A DNA stretch of 64,000 nt, from positions 26,660 to 90,659 of the forward strand of contig JAGWGZ010000001.1 of assembly GCA_028867075.1 (NCBI GenBank). Reading direction: 5' to 3'. Shown here piece after piece: positions 1,882 through 56,786 of the stretch. The notes beneath the pieces were generated by a model. That model did not search any database, was not told where the DNA came from, and saw nothing but the letters and a program-made list of their open reading frames with translations. Positions within the stretch are counted from its first letter, which is position 1. Each line of letters opens with the position of its first letter. The DNA comes from Nanobdellota archaeon. Lineage in GTDB: Archaea > Nanobdellota > Nanobdellia > Pacearchaeales > GW2011-AR1. The position numbers and the translations under genes are program-made.

Positions 1882-2328
1882 TTACCCTCTGCTTTTGCTT
1901 GCTTCTTCATTTATTTTTCTAATTTTTTTCTCAGGAACATTCAGGATTATAAACCCGGCGATCATTCCGAGGTCCACCACAAGACAATACTTGCAATAGG
2001 CATGAATAACAAACTGCTGAAGATAAAGGAAATACAAGACAATGAGTGTTCCGATGAAAACTCCTATGTGAATCAGAAATTTTGTATGCCTGTGTGGTCT
2101 TCTTATGTGAAGAATTGCAAGAAAAGACATCAGCGCAAAAATCGCAATGCCATAATAACTGTTGGAGATTCCGAAAGTTTTTGCATATACTGAAGTTTGC
2201 ACTGCATTGCATCCCGCGAACTGCGTGCATATCAACGGAAGAGGCACAAGAGACAGAACCAGAGAACTTGCCAAAGCCGCGAGAAATATCACGAGGAGTA
2301 TTTTGTAGCGAAGATGTGCAACTCTCAT
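1882..2328 (-). CDS. small polytopic membrane protein, possibly VKOR-like (CxxC pairs)
   Basis: Multiple predicted TM helices; CTQFAGC and CKYC motifs. Family assignment is tentative. Confidence 0.4.
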   Translation of the reverse strand: MRVAHLRYKILLVIFLAALASSLVLSLVPLPLICTQFAGCNAVQTSVYAKTFGISNSYYGIAIFALMSFLAILHIRRPHRHTKFLIHIGVFIGTLIVLYFLYLQQFVIHAYCKYCLVVDLGMIAGFIILNVPEKKIRKINEEASKSRG

Positions 2329-10073: not shown

Positions 10074-10265
10074 ATGGCAAGGTTAAAAGGGCTGATGTTT
10101 CTTCTTTATCTGATTTTTGGATTGTATTTTATAAACTATTCACTCAACTTAATTACTCTTCCAGGCTTTTTTTCAAGCATAGACCAATGGATAATCCTCG
10201 TCGGCGGACTGCTGATAATTCTCGGCGGGATCAACCAGATGGGATTGAACAAATTTGCCCCGTAA
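10074..10265 (+). CDS. small two-TM membrane protein (first gene of giant-protein locus)
   Basis: 63 aa, two hydrophobic helices; TATA-like AT-rich promoter upstream at 10030-10060. Confidence 0.35.
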   Translation: MARLKGLMFLLYLIFGLYFINYSLNLITLPGFFSSIDQWIILVGGLLIILGGINQMGLNKFAP

Positions 10266-10305: not shown

Positions 10306-12213
10306 ATGAAGCCGGAGGTGACTTATAGAAGGAATTTTGCTTCAAAAAGAGCTCATTCACACTTATTTTGCAGTTTTTTTCTGAAAAATCGCAGAGGCCA
10401 GGTTACGCTTTTTGTCATTCTTGCAATAATAATCCTTGCAGCTGTCGCAGGATTCTTGATTTATAAGAGTACCTTGCCGCCGGTTGTCCAGATTCCATCG
10501 GAGTTTCAGCCGATTTACAATACTTTCCTTTCATGCGTTCAAAGCACAACCCTTTCCGGGATAAGCATTCTTGAAAGTCAAGGGGGTTATATCTATCTTC
10601 CTGCATTTCAGCAGGGCTCCTCGTACATGCCGTTTTCATCGCAGCTTAATTTTTTGGGGAACCCGATTCCTTATTGGTATTACGTCTCAGGAAATAATAT
10701 AGCGACACAACAAGTTCCGTCCGAATCCGGAATGGAAGCGCAGCTCGCGCAGTTTATTAACCAGAATATAAGAAACTGCAATCTCGCACAGTATACTGAT
10801 GAAGGATATGTTGTTCAGATGGGTCAGCCAAGTGCAAGCGTCAGCATAAAATCAGATACTGTTGATGTGAATCTTGCAATGAACATGAACATCAGTAAGG
10901 GGAACTCAAGCATTTTTGTAAGCAACCACAATTCAAATGTGAACTCCGAACTCGGAAACTTATACTCTGATGCGCAGACAGTTTACCAATATGAACAATC
11001 AAATATGTTCCTTGAAAATTATACTCTTGATACAATCAGAAATTATGCTCCTGTCGACGGGGTTGACATAAAATGTTCCCCCGAAGTTTGGAATGCTTAT
11101 GGCATTGTCGCAAACCTAAGCCAGGCAATCCAGGACAATATAATGTCCCTTCATACAGGGAATAATGCAACGGATTATTTTTCATTGAAGATTCCTGTTC
11201 AGAATGTGAGATTTTTGACTTCTTCAGGTTGGCCAAGCGATTATGAAATTAATCCCTCTGAAGGAAGCCTGCTTGTTGCACAGCCGATAGGAAATCAGCA
11301 GGGACTGGGCTTATTGGGATTCTGTTATGTTCCTTATCATTTTGTATATGATGTAAAATACCCGGTCCTTGTGACTTTGCAAAGAGGAAGTGAAATTTTC
11401 CAATTCCCGTTTGCCGTCGTTATTCAGGGAAATGAGCCGCGGACATCTCTTGTTGGAAATGCGACATCTGTTTCAGCCCCTGTGCTCTGCCAGAATGAGA
11501 ATACAAATATGACTGTAAGCGTCCAGGATTCAAATTCAAATCCGGTAGATGCGAATATTTCCTACGAGTGTTTCGGAGAAACATGCAGCATCGGGGAGAC
11601 CAGATCAGGGAGCATTAATGCTCTTTTCCCCCAATGCGTCAATGGTTATGTCCTTGCCTCTGCCCCAGGATTTGTAACCGGGAAATATCAGCTCACAACC
11701 ACACAATCAGGAAGCATTTCTGTTGTGCTGAATAAGTTGTATAACGAATCTGTTGATTTGCAGATTGACGGAAAGGAATATACCGGAAACATGGCTCTTA
11801 TTACCTTCACATCTTCGGATGGAAGTTCGCAGACAATTAATTATCCCGCTCAAAAGAGCATAGGCCTGAGCGAGGGAGATTACACAATACAGGTTTCTGC
11901 TTATGATAACTCTTCAATAAATCTCGGCGCGACTACCGGACAGCAATGCATTAATGTAGCCGGGAATGCAGTGGAAGGAGCTTTGGGCGTGACACAGCAG
12001 CAGTGTTTTAGTGTAAATGTTCCAAGCCAGGTAATATCAAGCGCTCTTTCGGGAGGAGGACAAGCAGAGACTTATATCTTTGAATCAGACCTCCAGAATT
12101 CAAACACGATCAGGATAAATGCCCAATCTCTCCCTGCACCGACAACCATAGCACAACTCCAGAATAATTATGTTCTGCTTGAAAATAAAACAGTATCGGT
12201 AAATTTTGCATAA
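10306..12213 (+). CDS. secreted/anchored N/Q/S/T-rich surface protein (about 635 aa)
   Basis: ATG at 10306; the track's 10255 start is a TTG overlapping the upstream ORF. N-terminal TM/signal anchor VTLFVILAIIILAAVAGFLIY; composition similar to the downstream giant protein. Confidence 0.6.
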   Translation: MKPEVTYRRNFASKRAHSHLFCSFFLKNRRGQVTLFVILAIIILAAVAGFLIYKSTLPPVVQIPSEFQPIYNTFLSCVQSTTLSGISILESQGGYIYLPAFQQGSSYMPFSSQLNFLGNPIPYWYYVSGNNIATQQVPSESGMEAQLAQFINQNIRNCNLAQYTDEGYVVQMGQPSASVSIKSDTVDVNLAMNMNISKGNSSIFVSNHNSNVNSELGNLYSDAQTVYQYEQSNMFLENYTLDTIRNYAPVDGVDIKCSPEVWNAYGIVANLSQAIQDNIMSLHTGNNATDYFSLKIPVQNVRFLTSSGWPSDYEINPSEGSLLVAQPIGNQQGLGLLGFCYVPYHFVYDVKYPVLVTLQRGSEIFQFPFAVVIQGNEPRTSLVGNATSVSAPVLCQNENTNMTVSVQDSNSNPVDANISYECFGETCSIGETRSGSINALFPQCVNGYVLASAPGFVTGKYQLTTTQSGSISVVLNKLYNESVDLQIDGKEYTGNMALITFTSSDGSSQTINYPAQKSIGLSEGDYTIQVSAYDNSSINLGATTGQQCINVAGNAVEGALGVTQQQCFSVNVPSQVISSALSGGGQAETYIFESDLQNSNTIRINAQSLPAPTTIAQLQNNYVLLENKTVSVNFA

Positions 12214-15200
12214 ATGAAAAATAAAATGATGCTGAGAATTGAAATTTTATTAGTGGTAGCTGCTGCACTCTCACTCATATTGTTTGCAAATCCTGTTCTT
12301 GCATTCTCTGATTCAACTTTTCAGACCTCTGCATTTAACAATCTTATTTCTCCAACCGCAAGTTCTGGTTTTGACAATTCAATGTGCCAACAAGGGCAGG
12401 ATTTTATCCTTCAGATCTCTCCGACAGGATGCATGCCTGCAGTTGTAAGGAGCGATTTGCTTGAACAGCAGGATGTTCCCGTAATGTGCCCTATTGTAGC
12501 GACGCAGATAAATCCCCTGATAAGCGTAAATTCAATACAGGGAATGACTATTTCTGTTTCAGGAAATGCTTCCCGGTATGTCAATACTGCCGGATTTTAT
12601 CCTGCACAGGCAGCTCTTAACTTGCAGGGGCAGCAGAACACATATCCCCTCCTGAGCAATGTAGGATATGCTGTTATAGACCTGAAGCAGATGCCGAACG
12701 AATCTTCAATGCCTGACTTTGTATCAGGAAATCTGACAGCGACGATAAATTACAATGCGCAGAACATTTTTGGGGGAAATTCCAATTTTTACATTCCTGT
12801 AATGTCTGATTCTGACTGGCAGAATAATTATCCGGATTATAATTTCTGGAATAGTAAAGGCTATCTGAGAGTGACCAGCATACAAAATGACAATGCAAAC
12901 ATAAATGTTTACGGGACAAATCTGAATCAGCTTTCAAGCCTTAATCTCAAGACAGGCCAGACATCAGGCAACATTGCCATTCCTGGATTTGACTTTTGTT
13001 CTGCAACAATGCAGATTAAACTGAACAGTTTGCAGAATGCAAACACAATGGCTAATCTTGAAGTGAACGGGAATCCAGTTACTGTTGAAAAAGGCGGGCA
13101 GTTTATCGATAACAACTGTCAGGTTTCAAACATTTATCAGCAGGGGCTTTCTCAGGATGTGCAGATAGGATGCAATACTGATTCTGGAAATAAAAATTTT
13201 GACCTGAGGGTTGCACCGAAATTAGTCATGAATATTAATGGGCAGACAAGAACAGTCGGCCTTGGCGATTATCTGTACACCATTCCGGGCGATCCTAACG
13301 CAATAACAGACGCGGGAAAATCAGTTTTCCTTGCTTATATCGGAAGCAATAACACGAAAGGCGATCTGAACGGATTGTATGTTTACCTTGTTGCACTCCC
13401 AAAAAATGCGTTGCAGAGTGAGAGCTCTCTTACTAACGATGAGCTTTCTTCAATAGCAAGCTGGGTTCAACATGAAAATCTGGACTTCAAGGTAGGAATG
13501 AGTGGAATTTTGAGCGGCCTGCTTGATGTTGGGAAAGTTTTTGCCGGAACTACTGAATCGATTCTGAGGTATATTATCTCAGGGCAGGATCTTGCTCTTT
13601 TGCCTTATAATCCTTCAATGATAGCATCCAATCAGAATATTCCTCCCTTTCAGCAGGGCGCGGAACAGAGCGTGAGTATTGTGAGTTTTGCAGCAGGAAG
13701 CGATATGCTCCTTCAATCTCCTGTGAATCAATATTACCAGAATGCAACAAAAGATTATCAGGCAATACAAAATAATTACAAAACAGAAACATATTCTTCT
13801 GCAGGAACAGCAACTCTTGGAGAACAAGCCCTATATCAGCAAATGTCTCTTGCTTATAATCTTGGAGAGAAATATACGCTGAATACTCTTTGCAATCAGT
13901 TTGAGCAGCAATACCCGAAATCAACTTATGATACAAGCTTCTGCAGCGGTTTGCAGATTTCAAGCCAAACATCAGCAAGCCAGTTGATTTCCATAAATGG
14001 GCAATCATACCAGATAAATCTTAAAAGCGTTTATACTCCGACGTACAATGATTATGGGGCACAGATTCTTGTTAAGTATAAGGACGGGAGTTCAAAACAA
14101 TTTGATTTGGGTCAGAATGAGATGCAAACCATAAATGATACCTCCGGAGAATTTATGCAACTTGTTTCACTCACTCCAACCACAGCAACAGTTTCCGGGA
14201 ATATAAAAGCGTTCTCTTCCAATACTGTGACTCTGACAGAGAATGTTCCTGCAGTGTTCGGTAATTATGTGCTTACATTACAGAACGTGAATCTCAAACA
14301 ATTTGCAGACATCTCTGTTATTTCAAATCTTAACACTGCCGGCGCCAGGGCAAATGTTTCATTCAATATCAGCATTGAAAAAAGGCTGATACAGCTAAAT
14401 CCGGACAAGGTAAAACAGCAGATTTCAGATCTTAATTCAACAATTTCAACATGGGAGAGCATTGCGAACACGACCGGCACGGTTGTCCAGGCATTGGGAA
14501 CAGTTTGCCAGGATGTTGGAATAGGTCTGACTGTAAAAAATCTTCTTACAAATCTTTTCACAATGACGGGAACTGCAAGACAGATCGTGATGACTGGCGC
14601 GGGGGGATGGAACTCAAAATGCCAGACCCTCATTAATAACGGAAAATATTCCACTCTTGACCAGTGTTTTAATGACAATTCAAAGCAGATAGACTCCGAT
14701 GTAAGTCAGATGAGCCAATTCATGCAGAGCCAGAATGCAGGGATACAGAATCTGCAAAAAGATTATACGCAGCCTGCAAGCAACATTGTCGGGCAGGTTT
14801 TCCAGGGAAGCACAGTCAATACAGACAAGTTCATGAGCAGTTATCTTCCGCAGATTCAGTCATGTCTTGCTAATATGGGAACGGTTGCAAGCTCCTCAGA
14901 CTCAAGCAAGACAATAACATCTTCTCAGGCGCAGAACCTATTGATTTACCAGTATTATACAAATAATTTCTTCAGCCTTTCTGACGCGCGAAATGTTGAA
15001 TTGTACTGCAACATACTGAATTCTAATGACGCAAGCACTTCATTGAAGGCAATAGCACAACAAGGGATGTATTCAACACTTTCTGGAATCCAGCAAAATT
15101 CAAACACTTTCCAGCAACAACAGACTATTGCAGCAAAGCTAAATGTTCCAAGCAGTGTTGTTTTCACGGGCTCTCTGCAGCAGAATTCCAGGCCGATATC

Positions 15201-18200
15201 AATAACAGCCCCACAATCTTTTGGAACAAGTCCGTTTACAAACACAAATCTAAATGGTTTACCAGCCGGTTCTCATTGCGACTCCAATCCCCAATGCCAG
15301 AGCGGAGATTGCGATCCAACATTGAAGGTCTGCATTGGTAATCCTTCAATCGATCCAAGCAGTTATTACTTCATTTACAATGATCAGAGCAGTAGCAATT
15401 CATACCTGGTTGATTATAACGCAGATGGAATTGTTCAGGGAACTTATCTTATTAACACTGCAAGCAATACCCTTTCTCAGATAACAGATGCAAAAGGAAA
15501 TATTCAGAAGAATTATTTTAATTTTGCCATCAAGATTTATTCTGCGGGGAGCTACCAGAATGAATACAAGAACCCGACTGTCCAATATTTTGAAACCTCG
15601 CCATATCAGGGAATGCCTGCAATTGTTCCGTTTGATTTGAAGAACGGGTGGTATGCTGCTGTCCGGCAGGTTCTTCCGACAGGAGGGAATAGCGCGACAC
15701 AGTCATATACAGCGGCAGGACAAGTGCAAAGTTTCTATTTATGCAATGTCGGCCCAAACGGGTTGGAAGATGGAATAAACAACGGAGATGATATTTGCGA
15801 GGGAATAAATCTCGGAACAAACCAGCCATACAATCAGTTCCCCGGAATTACCGATCCGAACCAGGCTTCACAGTTGGTTAACAGTGCAGAGTCTGCCATA
15901 AAACAGGCTGCACAGGCAAGGGCAAACAATCCAAGCGGTTTGACTTATGTCACTATAAATAATCAGAGAATAAAAGTAGGTGCACCCGCAACTTCCACAC
16001 CGCAGATACAGTGCACTGATTTCATGTCTCCGACTGATTGCAACATCCTCTTCAATGCCTGCGACCCTGTTGTCTGTCCCGCAAGCAGATGCGACTTCGG
16101 TGGAGCTTATCATGTTCAGGATGTTGTGCAAAGCGGAATAATAGGAAGCATTGCTTTGTGCCTTCCGAATTATAAAGAAGGAATCGCAGTGCCCGTCTGC
16201 CTTACAGGAATCCAGGCAGGTGTGGAGAATATAATTTCGTACCAAAAAGCATACAGAGATTGCCTTCAGAATAATCTTAACACGGGACAAACGACAGGAA
16301 TCTGCAATGAGATATTAAGTATTTATCTTTGCCAGGATTTGTGGCAGCAGGCGCAACCTCTTGCAAATCTCGCAGTCTCAAAAGTTACGCAGACTGTTTT
16401 AGGGCAGAATAATGCCGGCGGGGGAGAATATATGTCTGTACAAAATGCTTACAATACTGCGCAGCAATCGTTCAACTATATCACTAATTACTATGCTTCC
16501 AGTTCTTCAAAGTCTTTCAGCAGTCTGTCAACACAGAATCTAGGGGCGACTGTCTGCCAGAATTTCCCATCAATCGTATTTCCGAACAGCGCAAACATGC
16601 TCACGCAGCTTTCAGCTATTGATTCTCCACCTCAGTTTTCAGGAAATTTCCAGGAGATTCCTTTCTCAAGCGCGACTGTCCCACCGACTTCGCAATACCA
16701 AGTTTATTATCACATCTATGCGGGGCAGAACTCAGGTGCTTATTACAGTGTTTATTTGCAAAGATCTTCTGGAAGCGGAAGCTCTTACTATCAGGATACT
16801 TCTGCTATACGGCAGACTGATTCCGGTTATATTGACACCGGCAGTTACCAAGACCAGACAAAAGATTTCACGGCGCCTTCCGGATATGACCAGTTGTGCA
16901 TAAATGTCAACGGGCAGGTTGACTGCGGATTCAAGCAGGTGTCAACATCTCTAGTGCCAAATTACATTCAGGCGCAATACCTTGCGGACCAGGCAAATAA
17001 TACACAGATAACAACTGAATCGCAGTGCGTTTCAGGAACAATTGACACTTCAAGTTTGTTACAGGCTTTGAATCCGAATGTCCAGAATGCAGTGCAGAAT
17101 GCTGCAAGCCCGCAACTTTACAATCAGGGAATAACAAGAATCTGCGCTACAGGAAATCCAGGACAGGGAAGCGATCCTTATGCAGGAACGCAGAATTCAC
17201 GATGGATTAAAGTAGGTTCATGCGGAAGCCAGAATCTTTCATGCTGGCTTGATACACAAAGCGTTAAGAATGCCATTAATGCTCCGGACTTAGCGTCTTA
17301 TCTTGCAAACGGAACAACGCAAAATCTGGGAAATGCAACGTTGCAAAGCCTGCAGTCCAGTTATCTTTCTGTTCTATTGAGCCAAAGCGGATATTTGAGC
17401 AATGACCAGTTTACAAGCAGTATACAGGATATTCAGTCGCAGACAGATTTAACGCAGAAAATAAACACAATAAATAATGTAATAAATAAAGTGTTCTATA
17501 ATAATCAGAAAGCATATCTGCTTTTCCTTAGGGGACTGGCTTATGGACAGCTGGCTCTGAAATCTTATTCAGCAAGTATTCCGGCCAGTGGTGCAGGCCA
17601 ATTTACAAGTTATCAGGATTGCATGTCTAAGATTGCAAGCAACTCTGTCTGCAGTGCAATGTTCCCTGTTTCTTCTGGACAGGGGAATTCACAGGGGGCT
17701 CCAACAGGAACGCTCCTGCCTGTTGGTTCTGCTTGCACAAAGGATTCTGATTGCCAGAGCGGGAGTTGTGTTGACACCGGAGATGCAACACTTGGAAAGA
17801 GATGCGCCGCTTCAACAAACATTCCCAACGGGGTTACTCTCTCAAGCCTTTCAAATGCAATGTCTTCACCGGAACTTAACTGTCAGTGCGGAAATAACTG
17901 CGAGCAGTATGCGCAATCCTTAATCAATGCCGCAAACACATATCATGTTAATCTTGTTCTCTTGCTTTCAATCATGGTCCAAGAATCTCATTGCAATGTT
18001 AATGCACAAACTTCTCCTGATTCTTCAGGATATTCTTCAATTGGATTAATGCAAATTTATAACAGCCCAAGTAACCTTCAGCAATATTGCGTTGGAAAAA
18101 TAAGCGGGATAAGCAGTGCAAGTGATATAACCGGTGCTGTAAATTATGATAAGAACATCCAGTGTGGCGCTTCTGTCTTGAAGAGCAAATATGCAGAGAG

Positions 18201-20250
18201 GCCTGCTCCGCAAACCTATACCTGTGATGGTGTCACAAAAACTTATTCAACTCCTTCTGATGCGGCCGTAAGAGGGTACATTGGATACGGGTGCACAAAT
18301 AATCCAAGCATAGACGTCCCGAGTTATGTTGATGATGTTAATCAGAGGTATAATCTCATAATGAGCATAATAAATCCGCAGCAGAGTACAGCAACGGCAT
18401 TGTATCAGACAGCTGCATATTCCCCTGATTTTGTTTCCCCCGTATTTAATTATAATAGTCTTTATTATGAATTTTCAGGAGGAACCTGGCAGTGGTCAAA
18501 TGATGGAAAAAAGTGGAATAATCTTGTGAACTCAGGAAGTTTAAGCGGAAGCAATTCAGTCATTGTCCAAAATTTAAATGGTAGATCATATGAGCAAGGA
18601 TTAAAAATATTAATTGATAGCGAACTTTCAAGTACTGGTGTTAAGGTCCCACTTATAAATTTGGCTCTCCCTATAGGTTATCCAATGCTTTCAACCCAAT
18701 ATGTTTCAATGGATCATAATGGACAGTTTAATTTCCTTTATTCCAAAGATAGAAGTTTCCCATTTTATTTCAAATTCTTAAATGGTAAGTGGATGTGGGA
18801 GACTAGTTCTAATTTAAATGGATGGATGGACACCAGTATCTCAAGCACAACTGTTGAGAGCGCGGGTGCCCCCCCAATGCTGACAAGTTTCTTAAGTAAT
18901 CTTGACCTTTACCAAGGTGCAGAAGCTTTGTTCAACAGCGGAGGAGATGATACTATCCCTGTTTCAGTTCCAACCTCCGCTTTTGATTATACCCCTTCCC
19001 TTCCTTCAACACCCATAACACCAAGTTCACAAACCCAAACCTCTTCAACAGCCCAGACACCTTCGACGTCTTCTATATCCCAATCACAGATATCCTCAGA
19101 TGATATAGGTTCTTATAACAATTTTGCATCTTTATTTAGTCAGTATTCACAGTCTAATCTTCCAAATGTGGTGATTGCACCTGCTCCAGGGAAATCTTTT
19201 TCTTCTGAAAGCGTTACAGGTCCAAGTACAAACGATATTTATTGGACGCAAAATGATTTTGAGGCTTTATTGATTTCAATTGCGCAGCAAAATGAATGGG
19301 GGCAGTTTGACACAAGTGGCAGCTGGTTGATGGGATATAGAGCTGGAAATCCTCACTATCAAACTGCAGATATCCAGATACGGGCCACCTCACTTATTTT
19401 AGAATCAGCAATACAAGGGGAAGGTAATTCTCTTGCGGACCAAGCAGGAAAGATTGTATCTTATGACTCTTGCAAACAATATTATAGAGTTGATACCACC
19501 AAGCAAATTTCATGCATATTGAGTATTTATCACACTGGAAGTTATTATACAGGGTTTTGGTTTACCGGAATAGGTGCAAATAAAGACGGAAACAATTATG
19601 CATCAAATGTCCTTGGAAACTGGACGTTATGGAAAAATTACCTAAGTTTGCAGCAAGGATCATCATCACAAACTCCCTCTTCTTCTAGTTCATCTGCAAA
19701 TTTAAATCCCACTTCTGCTCTTCCAGTCTCTCAATATAGTCCTTTCTCTGGCGTTTTTGCAAATTATGCGCAGGTTAATCTCCCTAATTCTGTTCTTGTG
19801 CCTGGTTCAATAATTGGTCCAAGTTCTAATGATGTCTATTGGAGTCAGAATGATTTCAAAGCTCTACTGGTAGCAATTGCGCAAATGAATAATTTTGGAA
19901 TTAATAGTAATGGTGATGGTATGATGGGTTATAGTCTGAGTTCTAGTTCAAGCCTTGATAAATATAATCAAATTAACATCGTCTCTTCAGCTTTAAAATC
20001 CGCAATTGAAGGAACAGGAAGTTCGCAGCCAGACCAAGCAGGGAATCTTGTTTCATATAATACCTGTAATCAATATTATAGAATAAATATGAATAATCAA
20101 CTGACATGTATCTTAAATATCTATAAGACGGGAATGAGTTCTGACAGCAGCGGGGTAGCTTATGCAAATAACGTCTTGAGTCTCGCAAAGATATGGGATG
20201 ATTACTTTAGCAGTAGTGGATCTAGTAATCTCGACCAACTTGCACTATAA
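12214..20250 (+). CDS. giant (2678 aa) secreted N/Q/S/T-rich surface protein with Cys-rich modules and an SLT/lytic-transglycosylase-like domain
   Basis: Signal peptide MKNKMMLRIEILLVVAAALSLILFANPVLA. Repeated C..(S/D)..CQSG.C motifs. Segment VQESHC...GYSSIGLMQIYN matches the E-S...GLMQ catalytic signature of the SLT lysozyme-like fold. C-terminal ~170-aa tandem duplication. Confidence 0.8.
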   Translation: MKNKMMLRIEILLVVAAALSLILFANPVLAFSDSTFQTSAFNNLISPTASSGFDNSMCQQGQDFILQISPTGCMPAVVRSDLLEQQDVPVMCPIVATQINPLISVNSIQGMTISVSGNASRYVNTAGFYPAQAALNLQGQQNTYPLLSNVGYAVIDLKQMPNESSMPDFVSGNLTATINYNAQNIFGGNSNFYIPVMSDSDWQNNYPDYNFWNSKGYLRVTSIQNDNANINVYGTNLNQLSSLNLKTGQTSGNIAIPGFDFCSATMQIKLNSLQNANTMANLEVNGNPVTVEKGGQFIDNNCQVSNIYQQGLSQDVQIGCNTDSGNKNFDLRVAPKLVMNINGQTRTVGLGDYLYTIPGDPNAITDAGKSVFLAYIGSNNTKGDLNGLYVYLVALPKNALQSESSLTNDELSSIASWVQHENLDFKVGMSGILSGLLDVGKVFAGTTESILRYIISGQDLALLPYNPSMIASNQNIPPFQQGAEQSVSIVSFAAGSDMLLQSPVNQYYQNATKDYQAIQNNYKTETYSSAGTATLGEQALYQQMSLAYNLGEKYTLNTLCNQFEQQYPKSTYDTSFCSGLQISSQTSASQLISINGQSYQINLKSVYTPTYNDYGAQILVKYKDGSSKQFDLGQNEMQTINDTSGEFMQLVSLTPTTATVSGNIKAFSSNTVTLTENVPAVFGNYVLTLQNVNLKQFADISVISNLNTAGARANVSFNISIEKRLIQLNPDKVKQQISDLNSTISTWESIANTTGTVVQALGTVCQDVGIGLTVKNLLTNLFTMTGTARQIVMTGAGGWNSKCQTLINNGKYSTLDQCFNDNSKQIDSDVSQMSQFMQSQNAGIQNLQKDYTQPASNIVGQVFQGSTVNTDKFMSSYLPQIQSCLANMGTVASSSDSSKTITSSQAQNLLIYQYYTNNFFSLSDARNVELYCNILNSNDASTSLKAIAQQGMYSTLSGIQQNSNTFQQQQTIAAKLNVPSSVVFTGSLQQNSRPISITAPQSFGTSPFTNTNLNGLPAGSHCDSNPQCQSGDCDPTLKVCIGNPSIDPSSYYFIYNDQSSSNSYLVDYNADGIVQGTYLINTASNTLSQITDAKGNIQKNYFNFAIKIYSAGSYQNEYKNPTVQYFETSPYQGMPAIVPFDLKNGWYAAVRQVLPTGGNSATQSYTAAGQVQSFYLCNVGPNGLEDGINNGDDICEGINLGTNQPYNQFPGITDPNQASQLVNSAESAIKQAAQARANNPSGLTYVTINNQRIKVGAPATSTPQIQCTDFMSPTDCNILFNACDPVVCPASRCDFGGAYHVQDVVQSGIIGSIALCLPNYKEGIAVPVCLTGIQAGVENIISYQKAYRDCLQNNLNTGQTTGICNEILSIYLCQDLWQQAQPLANLAVSKVTQTVLGQNNAGGGEYMSVQNAYNTAQQSFNYITNYYASSSSKSFSSLSTQNLGATVCQNFPSIVFPNSANMLTQLSAIDSPPQFSGNFQEIPFSSATVPPTSQYQVYYHIYAGQNSGAYYSVYLQRSSGSGSSYYQDTSAIRQTDSGYIDTGSYQDQTKDFTAPSGYDQLCINVNGQVDCGFKQVSTSLVPNYIQAQYLADQANNTQITTESQCVSGTIDTSSLLQALNPNVQNAVQNAASPQLYNQGITRICATGNPGQGSDPYAGTQNSRWIKVGSCGSQNLSCWLDTQSVKNAINAPDLASYLANGTTQNLGNATLQSLQSSYLSVLLSQSGYLSNDQFTSSIQDIQSQTDLTQKINTINNVINKVFYNNQKAYLLFLRGLAYGQLALKSYSASIPASGAGQFTSYQDCMSKIASNSVCSAMFPVSSGQGNSQGAPTGTLLPVGSACTKDSDCQSGSCVDTGDATLGKRCAASTNIPNGVTLSSLSNAMSSPELNCQCGNNCEQYAQSLINAANTYHVNLVLLLSIMVQESHCNVNAQTSPDSSGYSSIGLMQIYNSPSNLQQYCVGKISGISSASDITGAVNYDKNIQCGASVLKSKYAERPAPQTYTCDGVTKTYSTPSDAAVRGYIGYGCTNNPSIDVPSYVDDVNQRYNLIMSIINPQQSTATALYQTAAYSPDFVSPVFNYNSLYYEFSGGTWQWSNDGKKWNNLVNSGSLSGSNSVIVQNLNGRSYEQGLKILIDSELSSTGVKVPLINLALPIGYPMLSTQYVSMDHNGQFNFLYSKDRSFPFYFKFLNGKWMWETSSNLNGWMDTSISSTTVESAGAPPMLTSFLSNLDLYQGAEALFNSGGDDTIPVSVPTSAFDYTPSLPSTPITPSSQTQTSSTAQTPSTSSISQSQISSDDIGSYNNFASLFSQYSQSNLPNVVIAPAPGKSFSSESVTGPSTNDIYWTQNDFEALLISIAQQNEWGQFDTSGSWLMGYRAGNPHYQTADIQIRATSLILESAIQGEGNSLADQAGKIVSYDSCKQYYRVDTTKQISCILSIYHTGSYYTGFWFTGIGANKDGNNYASNVLGNWTLWKNYLSLQQGSSSQTPSSSSSSANLNPTSALPVSQYSPFSGVFANYAQVNLPNSVLVPGSIIGPSSNDVYWSQNDFKALLVAIAQMNNFGINSNGDGMMGYSLSSSSSLDKYNQINIVSSALKSAIEGTGSSQPDQAGNLVSYNTCNQYYRINMNNQLTCILNIYKTGMSSDSSGVAYANNVLSLAKIWDDYFSSSGSSNLDQLAL

Positions 20251-20256
20251 TTCTAA

Positions 20257-20427
20257 TGCCCCCGACAGGATTTGAACCTGCGACCCTTAGCTTTCTCCTT
20301 TTGCACGCGGAGGTGCGGAACCGTTTGGGTTCTGTTGCAACTTCCTGTTGGGATGCAGGAGGTGCGGAAACCCGCAGGTGGTTCTGGTTAGAAGGCTAAT
20401 GCTCTATCCAGGCTGAGCTACAGGGGC
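20257..20427 (-). tRNA. tRNA-Arg (anticodon UCU) with a ~96-nt intron after position 37
   Basis: Exons 20389-20427 and 20257-20292 fold into acceptor GCCCCTG/CGGGGGC plus A73, D-arm GCTC/GAGC, anticodon stem TTAGC/GCTAA with loop CTTCTA|A, T-arm GCAGG-TTCAAAT-CCTGT. The intron (20293-20388) interrupts at canonical 37/38. Confidence 0.65.
20293..20388 (-). other. tRNA-Arg(UCU) intron
   Basis: Intervening sequence ACCAGAACCACCTGCGGGTTTCCGCACCTCC...GGTTCCGCACCTCCGCGTGCAAAAGGAGAA with an internal direct repeat TTCCGCACCTCC. Confidence 0.55.
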
Positions 20428-29345: not shown

Positions 29346-29885
29346 TTACGGCTTAACCCAATTTACTTCATAATAGGTAATGTCTCCTTCTTCATCCACA
29401 ATTGCTATCAGAAGTTTCTTCTTCGTTGAATGAGCAACACGGTTCTTTGCCGAGAATTCCTGCCAAGTGAATGTTTTTGATTCATAATCTGTGAAAGCGA
29501 CCCACTTTGAATGTTTGTCTCCCATCTTTGCCCCTTTTTCATAAATTCGGAATTCTGCGCCGAATTTAAGCGCTGTTTTTACAACGTATCCTTTTTCGCG
29601 AAGGTCCCTGAATACCGGATATTTCAATTGGATTTTTTTGTCAGATTTCTTGAATCGCTTCATCAGCCCGTCAAAAGAAATTTTCTTTCCCGAGGATAAT
29701 ACTTCTATTTTTCCTTTCTCAACAAGGAAGAGCGCTTCCGAGGGGGAATAGATAACCTTGCCCTCTTTTTTCTCGCCGAAGCTGCTTTTTTCATGAAGAG
29801 AGAATGCTTCAGATGAATTGCTGGAAACCTGCTCTCCGACAAGATAGGCCTGTATTCTTTCCATTTTTGAATAAGACAACAGCAA
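29346..29885 (-). CDS. endA: tRNA-splicing endonuclease catalytic subunit EndA
   Basis: 179 aa; conserved segments SPSEALFLVEKGKIEV, YPVFRDLREKGYVVKTALKFGAEFRIYEKG and the catalytic His region HSKWVA match archaeal EndA. Confidence 0.8.
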   Translation of the reverse strand: MLLSYSKMERIQAYLVGEQVSSNSSEAFSLHEKSSFGEKKEGKVIYSPSEALFLVEKGKIEVLSSGKKISFDGLMKRFKKSDKKIQLKYPVFRDLREKGYVVKTALKFGAEFRIYEKGAKMGDKHSKWVAFTDYESKTFTWQEFSAKNRVAHSTKKKLLIAIVDEEGDITYYEVNWVKP

Positions 29886-29901: not shown

Positions 29902-32391
29902 GTGGTATTTTACATCATGGATTATAATTTCACTGCACTTGAAAAAAAATGGCAGAAAAGATGGGGTGAGAAAAAAATATTTGAGGTCAAAGAAGAGAAA
30001 AAAGGCAAAGAGAATTTTTACTGTCTTGAGATGTTTCCCTATCCTTCTTCCAGCGGGCTCCACATCGGGCATGCATTCAATTATACAATAGGGGATGTTT
30101 ATGCGAGATTTAAGAAAATGCAGGGGTTCAATGTTCTTCATCCTATGGGATATGATTCCTTCGGGCTTCCGGCAGAGAATGCAGCAATAAAATCGCATGC
30201 AGATCCGAAAGAATATACAGAAACAGCCATAAAGAATTTCATAAAACAGCAAAGGCTTCTCGGGCTCAGCTATGACTGGACGAGAGTTCTCATGACTCAC
30301 AAGCCTGATTATTACAAATGGGACCAATTTTTCTTTCTGAAACTTTTTGAGAAAGGTCTTGCTTATAGAAAAAAATCTCCGGTGAACTGGTGTCCAAAGT
30401 GCAACACTGTGCTTGCAAATGAGCAGGTTGTCAACGGGAAATGCTGGAGGCATCAGGATACAGACGTTGAAATAAGAAATCTTGAACAGTGGTTTGTCAA
30501 GACGACCGATTATGCAGAGGAACTCTTGGAGATGATAGAAAAACTGAACTGGCCCGAGCCCATTAAAATGATGCAGAGAAACTGGATTGGCAGAAGCGAG
30601 GGTGCAGAAGTTGTTTTTGATATTGACGGGGACAAGTGGCCTGTTTTCACGACGAGACCAGATACCATCTTTGGAGTCAGCTTCGTTGTTATCTCACTCC
30701 AGCATCCAAGGCTGATGCAATTAGTCTCACCCGACAGAAAAAAGGAAGTTGAAAAATTCCTGAAGAAAATGAAATCGGTAAAGCAGGAAGACCTGGACAA
30801 GATGGAAAAAGAAGGAGTCTTTATCGGAAGATATGCGAAAAATCCTATGACTAATGAAAAGGTTCCTGTTTATGCCGGAAATTTTGTTGTTGCAGATTAC
30901 GGAAGCGGAATGGTAATGGGCGTGCCTGCCCATGACCAGAGAGATTTTGATTTTGCAGTGAAGTATGGGCTGCCTATGAAGGCTGTAATCGAGCCCAGGG
31001 ATTTTGAAATTTATGAAAGAAACGGACAGCTTCCAAGCGCTTATGAAGGCGATGGGGAGCTGATAAATTCCGGCGAATTCACGGGAATGAACAACAGAAA
31101 GGTTATTGCAGAGATAACAAAATATTTGGATAAAAAGAAACTTGGAAAAGTGCAGGTTCAGTTCAAGATGAGGGACTGGCTTGTCAGCAGGCAGAGATAT
31201 TGGGGCGCCCCGATTCCAATAGTCTATTGCAATGATTGCGGAATTGTTCCTGTTCCTGAAAAAGACCTCCCCGTTCTTCTTCCTGCGAAGGTAGAATTCG
31301 GCATCGGAAATCCTCTTGAGACAAATGAAAAATTTGTGAATGTAAAATGCCCGAAATGCGGCATGAAAGCCAGAAGAGAAACAGACACTATGGATACTTT
31401 TTTTGATTCCAGCTGGTATTTTCTCAGATTCTGCGATCCGCAAAATTCCAAAAAGCCTTTTGATTTTAATAGGGCAATGTACTGGAACCCGGTTGACTTT
31501 TACACCGGGGGGGCCGAGCATGCAGTCATGCATTTGATGTATGCGAGATTTTTTACAAAAGCCCTCCGCGATCTTGGATTCATTGAAATGGATGAGCCAT
31601 TTACACGGCTCTTCAACCAGGGAATGATTCACGGTGAGGACGGATTTGTGATGTCAAAGTCCAGAGGGAATGTCGTAAATCCCATTGACATGATTGAAAA
31701 ATATGGTGCTGATGCATTGAGGCTTGCACTGGTTTCCTTTGCCTCTCCAGACAAAGACACTAATTGGGATGAAAATGTGCTCAACGGGAATTTTAAATTC
31801 CTCCGGAAATTGTTCTCTTATTTCAACGCTGTAAAAAAATTCTCAAAATCAGACGAGCGAATGGACAGCAAGATTAACAGGGCTGTAAAAAATGTCACCG
31901 ACTTCATAGAAAGCATGAAGTATAATTATGCAATCATCGAGATAAGGAATCTGTTCAATTCTTTTCCAGACCAGACAAGCAGGGAAAACCTTGAAAAATT
32001 CCTGAAATTAATCTCTCCTTTCTGCCCGCATATTGCGGAAGAGTTCTGGGAGAAGATGGGAAACAAGAATTTCATTTCTGTTTCTTCCTGGCCTAAGGCT
32101 GATGAGAGCAGAATTAATGAGGGTTTTGAGATGGAAGAGAAAATAGTGGAAAGGCTGGCAGAAGATATCAAGTCCGTGAAGAACCTTATTTCAAAAAGAG
32201 AGAAGCCCGGTGCAGCTTATGTATATGTTATACCGAATGAGAAGAAAGTATTTGAAGACAATCTTGATAACTTGGAGAAAAAAACTCAGATCCATGTAAA
32301 GATTTATTCTGTAAGTGATAAAGACAAACACGATCCCCTGGGAAAATCAAAGAAAGCAAAGCCCGGAAAACCCGCGATTTATCTGGAATAG
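29902..32391 (+). CDS. leuS: leucyl-tRNA synthetase, bacterial-type
   Basis: HIGH variant HIGHAFNY, KMSKS variant VMSKSRGN, bacterial-type segment HPMGYDSFGLPAENAA; 829 aa. Confidence 0.9.
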   Translation: MVFYIMDYNFTALEKKWQKRWGEKKIFEVKEEKKGKENFYCLEMFPYPSSSGLHIGHAFNYTIGDVYARFKKMQGFNVLHPMGYDSFGLPAENAAIKSHADPKEYTETAIKNFIKQQRLLGLSYDWTRVLMTHKPDYYKWDQFFFLKLFEKGLAYRKKSPVNWCPKCNTVLANEQVVNGKCWRHQDTDVEIRNLEQWFVKTTDYAEELLEMIEKLNWPEPIKMMQRNWIGRSEGAEVVFDIDGDKWPVFTTRPDTIFGVSFVVISLQHPRLMQLVSPDRKKEVEKFLKKMKSVKQEDLDKMEKEGVFIGRYAKNPMTNEKVPVYAGNFVVADYGSGMVMGVPAHDQRDFDFAVKYGLPMKAVIEPRDFEIYERNGQLPSAYEGDGELINSGEFTGMNNRKVIAEITKYLDKKKLGKVQVQFKMRDWLVSRQRYWGAPIPIVYCNDCGIVPVPEKDLPVLLPAKVEFGIGNPLETNEKFVNVKCPKCGMKARRETDTMDTFFDSSWYFLRFCDPQNSKKPFDFNRAMYWNPVDFYTGGAEHAVMHLMYARFFTKALRDLGFIEMDEPFTRLFNQGMIHGEDGFVMSKSRGNVVNPIDMIEKYGADALRLALVSFASPDKDTNWDENVLNGNFKFLRKLFSYFNAVKKFSKSDERMDSKINRAVKNVTDFIESMKYNYAIIEIRNLFNSFPDQTSRENLEKFLKLISPFCPHIAEEFWEKMGNKNFISVSSWPKADESRINEGFEMEEKIVERLAEDIKSVKNLISKREKPGAAYVYVIPNEKKVFEDNLDNLEKKTQIHVKIYSVSDKDKHDPLGKSKKAKPGKPAIYLE

Positions 32392-55985: not shown

Positions 55986-56786
55986 ATGAATTACATTGAA
56001 AGAGAATTGGCTACTGAAATTGAAATGAGGATGGAATTTATTAGAAGTCACTATAATTCTGAAGTGAAATCCAGGTCCAGAAAACTCATGACCAGTGAAA
56101 TTGAGAAGACCTCGCAGGTTCATTCATATAGAATGGAAAATCCCCAGATAATCGTTCCTTTTTCTGTCCCACGAAATAAGCATAAGAAAGAGATTAGACA
56201 AGGAATTAAGAATATAGAAAGAGCATTTGAATGGGGAATAGAGAATTTTGACCCCGGAAATTTTGACGATATCTTTGTAAGGGAGATTGCGGGGAGAGTT
56301 ACTCCTGAGCTTTATGATACACAAATTGCACAGTATCGGGATCGGAATGTGGTTATCTCTGGAGCGAGTGTCACCCCGCCTTATCCGACAAAATTAATTA
56401 AGAAAGAGATGCCGGAGTTTATTCAGTCTCTTAGAAGGCAACTTAAATGCCCAAATGATTTAAACAAAATTGAAGCAGCTATTTATGCTCACCTTCATCT
56501 TGCAAGGATACATCCTTTTTTGGACGGTAATGGGAGAACAGCAAGGGTTGTCCAGAATGTTATACTCTACCATAATGATATCCCCCCTCCAGTGATAGAA
56601 ACCGGTGAGAGAATGACATACTATAAAATGCTTGATCAAGCAGTATTGGATATTGATGAATCAAAGGCCATCGGACATGAAGGAGCTAAAACCGAGGGAG
56701 AGAGCTTATTTTATAATTACATGGCAGGAAAAATAAATGCCTCTTTGGATAAGATAATTTATTACTGCAATAATCATTTTCATTAA
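55986..56786 (+). CDS. Fic-family protein (putative AMPylator)
   Basis: Canonical Fic motif HPFLDGNGRTARV; 266 aa. Confidence 0.8.
   Translation: MNYIERELATEIEMRMEFIRSHYNSEVKSRSRKLMTSEIEKTSQVHSYRMENPQIIVPFSVPRNKHKKEIRQGIKNIERAFEWGIENFDPGNFDDIFVREIAGRVTPELYDTQIAQYRDRNVVISGASVTPPYPTKLIKKEMPEFIQSLRRQLKCPNDLNKIEAAIYAHLHLARIHPFLDGNGRTARVVQNVILYHNDIPPPVIETGERMTYYKMLDQAVLDIDESKAIGHEGAKTEGESLFYNYMAGKINASLDKIIYYCNNHFH

Follow-up and report, generated by a model that had tools for sequence, protein, structure and literature searches.

Why would an archaeon, which has no murein to remodel, encode a giant protein carrying a domain related to the murein lytic transglycosylases of bacteria, and what would this domain act on? 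The question is raised by a stretch of 64,000 nucleotides (nt) from a Nanobdellota archaeon (GenBank assembly GCA_028867075.1, contig JAGWGZ010000001.1, positions 26,660 to 90,659 of the forward strand), which was analysed as a whole and is called the window here. One open reading frame (ORF) of the window, the giant ORF, encodes a protein that is 100% identical to the entry 'transglycosylase SLT domain-containing protein [Nanoarchaeota archaeon]' at NCBI. This entry comes from a metagenome-assembled genome (MAG); the host of the gene is thus a Nanoarchaeota (DPANN) MAG, and the homologs with names are from Pacearchaeota and Nanoarchaeia. We consider it probable that the SLT (GH23) domain, which has an intact active-site signature, is an exchangeable tail module of a giant secreted protein that is rich in Cys and confined to DPANN archaea of the Pacearchaeota/Woesearchaeota type, and that the domain acts on bacterial cell walls. 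The domain, the family and the idea of a bacterial wall as target are already known from publications and database annotation.

The SLT domain and its active site

The signature sequence YHVNLVLLLSIMVQESHCNVNAQTSPDSSGYSSIGLMQIYNS is located at amino acids (aa) 1910-1951 of the giant ORF (nt 17941-18066). A first-pass annotation, made from the DNA sequence without database searches, had placed it at about aa 1915-1950, which is off by a few residues, and the span it gave (17880-18340) falls inside the SLT domain as delimited here (Table 1). The position it gave for the candidate catalytic Glu was exactly right, Glu1924 being encoded by GAA at nt 17983-17985, and the gap of about 20 residues that it described between the E-S and GLMQ motifs was found as well, since GLMQ starts exactly 20 residues past Glu1924.

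With hmmscan, the Pfam family SLT (PF01464, gathering cut-off 21.3 bits) matches aa 1904-1995 with 27.2 bits (E 3e-6), or with 29.4 bits if the tail alone is used as query. This is the sole Pfam family matched by the whole giant protein; a scan against NCBIfam gave only a weak match to IagB. The single domain sequence had no match among the PDB sequences in a phmmer search, and a profile alone succeeded. This profile was made from alignment A1, which contains 28 sequences of the SLT domain and its homologs, and it matches MltC with E 1e-16, the ES motif of MltC being aligned with E1924-S1925. MltE/EmtA and Slt70 follow at about 2e-11 to 4e-11, goose-type lysozyme at 1e-9 and, more distantly, the Ralstonia GH23 chitinase 3w6e at 2e-3. 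An AlphaFold2 (AF2) model of aa 1870-2065 calculated from A1 has a predicted local distance difference test (pLDDT) of 91 and a predicted template modelling score (pTM) of 0.88. When this model was compared with the PDB using Foldseek, the best 50 matches were all lytic transglycosylases or lysozymes. MltE has the lowest E (3e-4), MltC and Slt reach TM-scores of 0.54-0.55, and the scores range overall from 0.46 to 0.55; they are modest, the list of matches is uniform. Pfam, the PDB profile and the AF2/Foldseek comparison all lead to lysozyme-like folds, as the first-pass annotation had predicted, and the region is confirmed by these comparisons, far beyond chance, as a bacterial-type lytic transglycosylase-like domain.

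Conservation of the active-site motifs was counted over 94 homologous SLT domain instances (Table 1). The Glu proposed from the single sequence is kept in every one of them. The third family-1 motif reads G-Y-I-G-Y-G in the giant protein, with Tyr and Gly retained and Ile replacing Asn; at this position, 82 of the 94 domains have Asn and 4 have Ile. With E. coli MltC (1B), MltE/EmtA (1C) and Slt70 (1A) the domain shares the E-S, G-L-M-Q and Y-x-G motifs and the lysozyme-like helical fold, at 14-21% identity in the structural alignments (TM-scores as above). Unlike these enzymes it has additional conserved Cys residues (an N-terminal CxCGxxC; QESxC), a Y-x-C beta-hairpin insert and the Ile in place of the AYNxG Asn, and it belongs to a protein of an archaeon. 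The closest relatives outside the giant family are bacterial SLT proteins of about 200 aa from Metabacillus, Nitrospirae and Synergistetes (E 1e-14 to 1e-16), which fits a bacterial origin of the SLT module.

Table 1. Features of the giant ORF and of the gene upstream of it (positions in the window; amino acids refer to the giant protein)
Feature	Position	Strand	Remarks
Upstream partner gene, about 635 aa from ATG at 10306	10306..12213	+	one N-terminal transmembrane helix
Giant ORF	12214..20250	+	2,678 aa, stop codon included
Predicted Sec signal peptide, MKNKMMLRIEILLVVAAALSLILFANPVLA followed by F	12214..12303	+	Kyte-Doolittle scan; cleavage site (before F) placed by eye
Conserved core, aa 1 to about 1790	12214..17583	+	homolog alignment
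Cys-rich linker between core and SLT domain, aa 1803-1864	17620..17805	+	six Cys
SLT / GH23 lysozyme-like domain, aa 1880-2058	17851..18387	+	Pfam, custom hidden Markov model (HMM), PDB profile matches, AF2, Foldseek; eight Cys
E-S motif, candidate catalytic Glu1924 followed by Ser1925	17983..17988	+	Glu 94/94, Ser 88/94
G-L-M-Q motif, aa 1944-1947	18043..18054	+	Gly 94/94, Met 92/94, Gln 91/94
Y-I-G, aa 2022-2024, equivalent of family-1 'AYNxG'	18277..18285	+	Tyr 92/92 ungapped
W module, about 220 aa, …YYEFSGGTWQWS… / …FYFKFLNGKWMWE…	18409..19068	+	HMM iterations 1-3; spotted by eye in tails
CTR copy 1, probable pseudo-SLT domain, aa 2299-2484	19108..19665	+	Asn2360 (nt 19291-19293) at catalytic Glu position
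CTR copy 2, probable pseudo-SLT domain, aa 2506-2670	19729..20223	+	Asn2559 (nt 19888-19890) at catalytic Glu position

A conserved core with exchangeable tails

The giant protein consists of a long core and a tail, in which a Cys-rich linker, the SLT domain, the W module, a Ser/Thr/Gln-rich linker and two tandem CTR modules follow each other. The core can be aligned in all 119 of 119 homologs with 35-54% identity; past aa 1800 only 10-23 homologs align. It contains dozens of invariant Cys, Gly and Pro residues as well as motifs such as CDPVxCPxSRCDxGG…GIIGSIALCLPN and GGGEY. Searches of Pfam, NCBIfam, PHROGs and, with profile A3, the PDB sequences gave no meaningful match for it. An exhaustive phmmer search with aa 600-1790 retrieved 938 clusters (clustered at 50% identity, E <= 1e-30).

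According to a family-specific HMM, the SLT module is present in 47 of the 120 best homologs. It was likewise found in 46 of 121 further cluster representatives, which is about 40% in both samples. The first-pass annotation had described the domain as embedded in the giant protein, but it is not part of the conserved body: it sits in the C-terminal third, which is variable, and is absent from about 60% of the family members. Even the nearest relatives (53-54% identity) differ in this respect, since P0004 and P0005 have no SLT module and P0002, P0003 and P0007 have one. The order of the modules varies too, with CTR-SLT-CTR in P0002 and P0003 versus SLT-W-CTR-CTR in the giant protein. W modules were detected in 63-69 of the 120 proteins using HMM iterations 1-3 (iteration 4 drifted into the core), and many family members have W modules alone as their tail. 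Other tails contain DUF1615, a borderline glucosaminidase, a matrixin (M10) together with SLT, a trypsin-like protease, TPM or PT-HINT; precomputed annotations of family members add LRR, ankyrin and M23 domains. The SLT module is thus an accessory and exchangeable part, and tails are shuffled behind a conserved core. The family gives the impression of a constant scaffold to which different C-terminal modules can be attached; it is not a dedicated muramidase. An assembly artefact or gene fusion was rejected as origin of the layout, because core-SLT-W-(CTR) recurs in independent assemblies (P0006, P0008, P0011). Grouping of the tails by single-linkage clustering was dropped, as all tails merged.

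The tandem CTR modules at the C-terminus, about 180 aa each, occur in 26 of the 120 homologs, with or without SLT. In a profile-profile comparison (hhalign) the CTR and SLT profiles match with E 2e-4 and a probability of 44%, and larger profiles give E 1e-4 and 58%. Both alignments cover the whole domain in the correct motif register: LLISIAQQNEWG is opposite LLLSIMVQESHC, WLMGY opposite GLMQI, QI…ILESA opposite NIQCGASVLKS, Y-x-x-C opposite Y-x-C, SIYHTG opposite RGYIGYG and YASNV opposite YVDDV. The position of the catalytic Glu is occupied in 47 CTR instances by E (15, then followed by S or T), N (13) or Q (12). The AF2 model of CTR copy 1 has a pLDDT of 86. A word-indexed search for CTR homologs, with the profile as query, retrieved two fragments only and was uninformative. 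Judged from the profile alignments, the CTR modules are likely homologous to SLT and would represent degenerate copies of it. Crystallographers introduce substitutions of this kind (E to N/Q) to obtain lytic transglycosylases that bind their substrate but are inactive. If the homology is true, the CTR copies would be natural E-to-N/Q variants, and by analogy we would guess that they bind glycans.

The architecture is reminiscent of polymorphic toxins (Rhs, CdiA, MAF-type), in which a conserved N-terminal region is likewise combined with enzymatic modules that vary at the C-terminus. In the giant family one member, P0086, has a PT-HINT pretoxin domain in its tail (about aa 2190-2320), followed by a C-terminal domain of about 300 aa without assignment, an arrangement typical of polymorphic toxins. 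Pfam detects no pretoxin domain in the giant protein itself, PT-HINT being confined to this homolog, and no cognate immunity gene was found directly downstream of the giant gene, where a tRNA gene and an RNase Z-like gene are located. Unlike polymorphic toxins, the giant gene occupies a single-copy housekeeping locus, and many family members have no recognisable enzymatic tail. Two other homologs, P0025 and P0048, end in DUF1615 (the C-terminal ~300 aa), in which ES, G-A-M-Q and Y-N-S-G motifs were seen by eye; DUF1615 may itself be lytic-transglycosylase-like.

A Kyte-Doolittle scan found one hydrophobic segment in the giant protein, which is N-terminal and of the Sec signal peptide type. The protein contains 54 Cys residues. 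A homolog of VKOR (vitamin K epoxide reductase family) is encoded at 1882-2328 (-) and is a plausible oxidant for disulfides of this Cys-rich secreted protein. N-X-S/T sequons are depleted in the giant protein, with 15 observed and 48.8 +/- 5.8 expected from composition-preserving shuffles (z = -5.8); for the tail alone the figures are 1 and 16.8. Across 40 homologs the median z is -3, and neither the upstream partner nor cytoplasmic controls are depleted. Such a depletion is unusual for an archaeal extracellular protein. A canonical S-layer protein is unlikely, given the strong depletion of sequons and the lack of an anchor.

The upstream partner gene and the locus

The gene directly upstream of the giant gene, here called the partner, starts either with TTG at 10255 or with ATG at 10306. 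Its product begins with N-R-R-G-Q-V-T followed by a hydrophobic helix, and across genomes the N-terminus reads (K/R)(K/R)-(G/A)-Q-V-T followed by a hydrophobic helix of 20 residues. By eye, this resembles a class III (prepilin-type) signal. The partner has no match in Pfam or PHROGs; it is 52-59% identical in two distant genomes and thereby better conserved than the giant protein. Its TAA stop codon abuts the ATG of the giant gene, and in other genomes the two genes overlap or are spaced. Read-through from the in-frame upstream ORF was rejected as an explanation on account of the TAA immediately before the ATG, the signal peptide, and the overlapping or spaced genes at homologous loci.

The gene order of the window is the same in the Nanoarchaeia genome L001, whose giant protein is 46% identical. 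The Pacearchaeota genome L003 (39% identity, no SLT) has the same flanking genes with a rearranged downstream block. The shared order is GINS51, S3Ae on the opposite strand, small ORFs, a partner of about 610-640 aa, the giant gene, and RNase Z, LSM, S8e and TFIIB. The partner and the giant gene are thus a vertically inherited two-gene unit and not a mobile island or prophage. A prophage or virus origin was rejected because the locus is housekeeping and syntenic and neither the giant protein nor the partner matches PHROGs. IagB, EtgA, VirB1 and the SLT domains of phage tape-measure or tail proteins are comparable in that an SLT module is tied to a large apparatus for local peptidoglycan opening, and apart from IagB in NCBIfam the A1 profile weakly matches EtgA (8urn/4xp8) and the tape-measure protein 9b45 in the PDB. 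Unlike in these systems, no secretion-system or phage genes are located nearby, there is no PHROG match, and the surroundings are syntenic housekeeping genes.

The window as a whole is composed of archaeal housekeeping genes, including those for TFIIB, GINS51, S3Ae, S8e, SRP54, FtsY, many aminoacyl-tRNA synthetases, glycolytic enzymes and the tRNA-splicing endonuclease. The first-pass annotation had spoken of a giant archaeal surface protein. The archaeal part of this statement agrees with the content of the window (TFIIB, GINS51, S3Ae, tRNA-splicing endonuclease and an intron-containing tRNA) and export agrees with the signal peptide, so that the statement holds in part, with the surface location itself as a prediction. 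The intron-containing tRNA is a tRNA-Arg(TCT) directly downstream of the giant gene at 20257-20427 (-), with an intron of 96 nt in the anticodon loop. It was missed by ARAGORN with default settings, detected by Rfam and confirmed by ARAGORN when introns were allowed. The tRNA-splicing endonuclease gene is located at 29346-29885 (-). A gene for leucyl-tRNA synthetase (29902-32391, +) matches Pfam tRNA-synt_1_2 ('Leucyl-tRNA synthetase, editing domain') with E 5e-62, a family that we take to be typical of bacterial-type leucyl-tRNA synthetases; if so, this archaeon would have an enzyme of the bacterial type. A Fic/DOC-family gene at 55986-56786 (+) is located between two genes of the archaeal Glu-tRNA(Gln) amidotransferase, those for GatD and a GatE-like protein.

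Proposed role and target

In the role that we consider probable, the giant protein would be exported via the Sec pathway and disulfides would be formed in the exported protein. It would be held at or near the cell surface, possibly by the prepilin-like partner, and the core of 1,790 aa might act as a scaffold or an adhesin. The bonds cut by the SLT module would be the beta-1,4 linkages between N-acetylmuramic acid (MurNAc) and N-acetylglucosamine (GlcNAc) in bacterial peptidoglycan, and this cutting could make a local opening in the wall of a bacterium that is host or prey, or free muropeptides as food. The two degenerate CTR domains at the C-terminus (Glu to Asn) might be non-catalytic binders of glycan strands that anchor the enzyme on the sacculus. 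SLT activity and murein as substrate are predictions from sequence and model comparison, and the breaching of a wall is a published hypothesis.

Several observations weigh against this role. About 60% of the family members have no SLT module, so that wall cutting cannot be the core function of the family. The third active-site motif is imperfect (Y-I-G and not Y-N-G). Retention at the surface is questioned by the scan of the whole protein, which found no C-terminal membrane anchor, and the partner is linked to the giant protein by gene adjacency only. No genes for peptidoglycan recycling or muropeptide uptake were seen in the 64-kb window. The model of CTR copy 1 has no significant Foldseek neighbour in the PDB or BFVD (best E about 1); the matches that superpose best are the GH23 chitinase 3w6e and the Tn916-Orf17-like wall hydrolase 4hpe, with TM-scores of 0.37-0.44.

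The missing anchor would also suit a module that serves scavenging or antibacterial competition and not attachment to a host. It would then degrade the peptidoglycan of dead or neighbouring bacteria for amino sugars and amino acids, or kill competitors. Experiments have demonstrated the killing of bacteria by archaeal peptidoglycan hydrolases, which are reported to be prominent in Nanoarchaeota (PMC12352652). A ROK-family sugar kinase and glycolysis genes are present in the window, and the patchy distribution of SLT (about 40%) fits an accessory ecological trait. However, a core of 1,790 aa at a fixed housekeeping locus would be a costly carrier for an enzyme of 180 aa, and the lack of muropeptide uptake and recycling genes in the window counts against this explanation as well. 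We regard this explanation as unlikely.

GH23 covers lytic transglycosylase, lysozyme and chitinase activities, and the SLT domain might be a hydrolytic goose-type lysozyme or chitinase-like enzyme, which would use the same fold and Glu with water, or a chitin/GlcNAc polymer, in place of the MurNAc C6-OH attack. The profile does match goose and fish g-type lysozymes (E 1e-9) and 3w6e (E 2e-3), and some homologs show GLMQ[IV]D, with Asp at what we take to be the position of GEWL Asp97. On the other hand, MltC, MltE and Slt70 score better than the g-type lysozymes, the giant protein has Tyr and not Asp after GLMQI, and the loop after ES (x-x-N-x-x-A-x-x-S) has, by eye, the pattern of lytic transglycosylases and not that of g-type lysozymes. 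Sequence gives no certain separation of the two activities; on the points listed, a lysozyme or chitinase appears rather improbable.

That the domain is a decayed, non-catalytic remnant with a glycan-binding or structural role is very improbable. The Ile in place of the Asn of Y-N-G could be read in this way, and the two probable pseudo-SLT domains in the same tail indicate that degeneration happens in the family; however, Glu, Ser, GLMQ and Tyr are intact and near-invariant over the 94 instances, which points to purifying selection that maintains catalysis. The first-pass annotation had named pseudomurein as alternative target, and a methanogen host comes to mind because methanogens are often considered as partners of Woesearchaeota and Pacearchaeota. 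Pseudomurein can hardly be the substrate, however, since it has beta-1,3-linked N-acetyl-L-talosaminuronic acid, lacks MurNAc and is insensitive to lysozyme, the pseudomurein lysins known so far are to our knowledge endoisopeptidases, and the domain is most closely related to murein enzymes of bacteria.

The bacterial-wall role agrees with what has been published. In its passages on the subject, Castelle 2021 (PMC8204110) describes DPANN proteins of up to ~3,000 aa from Pacearchaeota/Woesearchaeota with a murein lytic transglycosylase domain (fam00969), proposes that they bind and degrade the walls of bacteria, and refers to Rinke 2013 and Castelle 2015 for earlier observations. The corresponding passages of Vigneron 2022 (PMC9723730) report genes for a 'large lytic murein transglycosylase' (GH23) in MAGs of Woesearchaeota and make a case for predation, and Takamiya 2024 (PMC11537232) and Strock 2025 (PMC12352652) repeat or extend the bacterial-wall idea. 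As far as fam00969 is described in those passages, the giant protein corresponds to it in lineage (Nanoarchaeota sensu GTDB), size class (2,000-3,000 aa), domain and proposed role, and nothing essential distinguishes it from the DPANN family that the passages of PMC8204110 and PMC9723730 present. These passages contain no mention of the SLT module as an accessory part, of an unannotated core that defines the family, of shuffled tails, or of a conserved partner and locus. The accessory SLT, the shuffled tails, the core with ~940 clusters, the prepilin-like partner, the probable pseudo-SLT pair and the sequon depletion are leads and not established results.

From these leads a broader picture can be drawn, which is possible and at present doubtful: the giant family might be a DPANN-specific, chromosomally fixed surface 'effector scaffold', in which the core and the prepilin-like partner present interchangeable modules (SLT, DUF1615, glucosaminidase, M10, trypsin, HINT plus toxin). 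Each lineage's type of host would then be readable from its modules, lineages with SLT would parasitise bacteria, and the pseudo-SLT pair flanking the active SLT would clamp glycan strands.

A giant secreted protein with a putative murein-cutting enzyme is among the few genomic hints that some Pacearchaeota and Woesearchaeota live on bacteria and not on archaea, a hint that has already been published. The window contributes one well-verified example, together with an anatomy that makes the idea of bacterial hosts more testable, as it offers residues to mutate, a confidently folding fragment and a conserved partner gene. The presence of SLT in only about 40% of the lineages allows a comparison with co-occurring hosts. 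If the effector scaffold is true, the set of tail modules would indicate the host type of each lineage.

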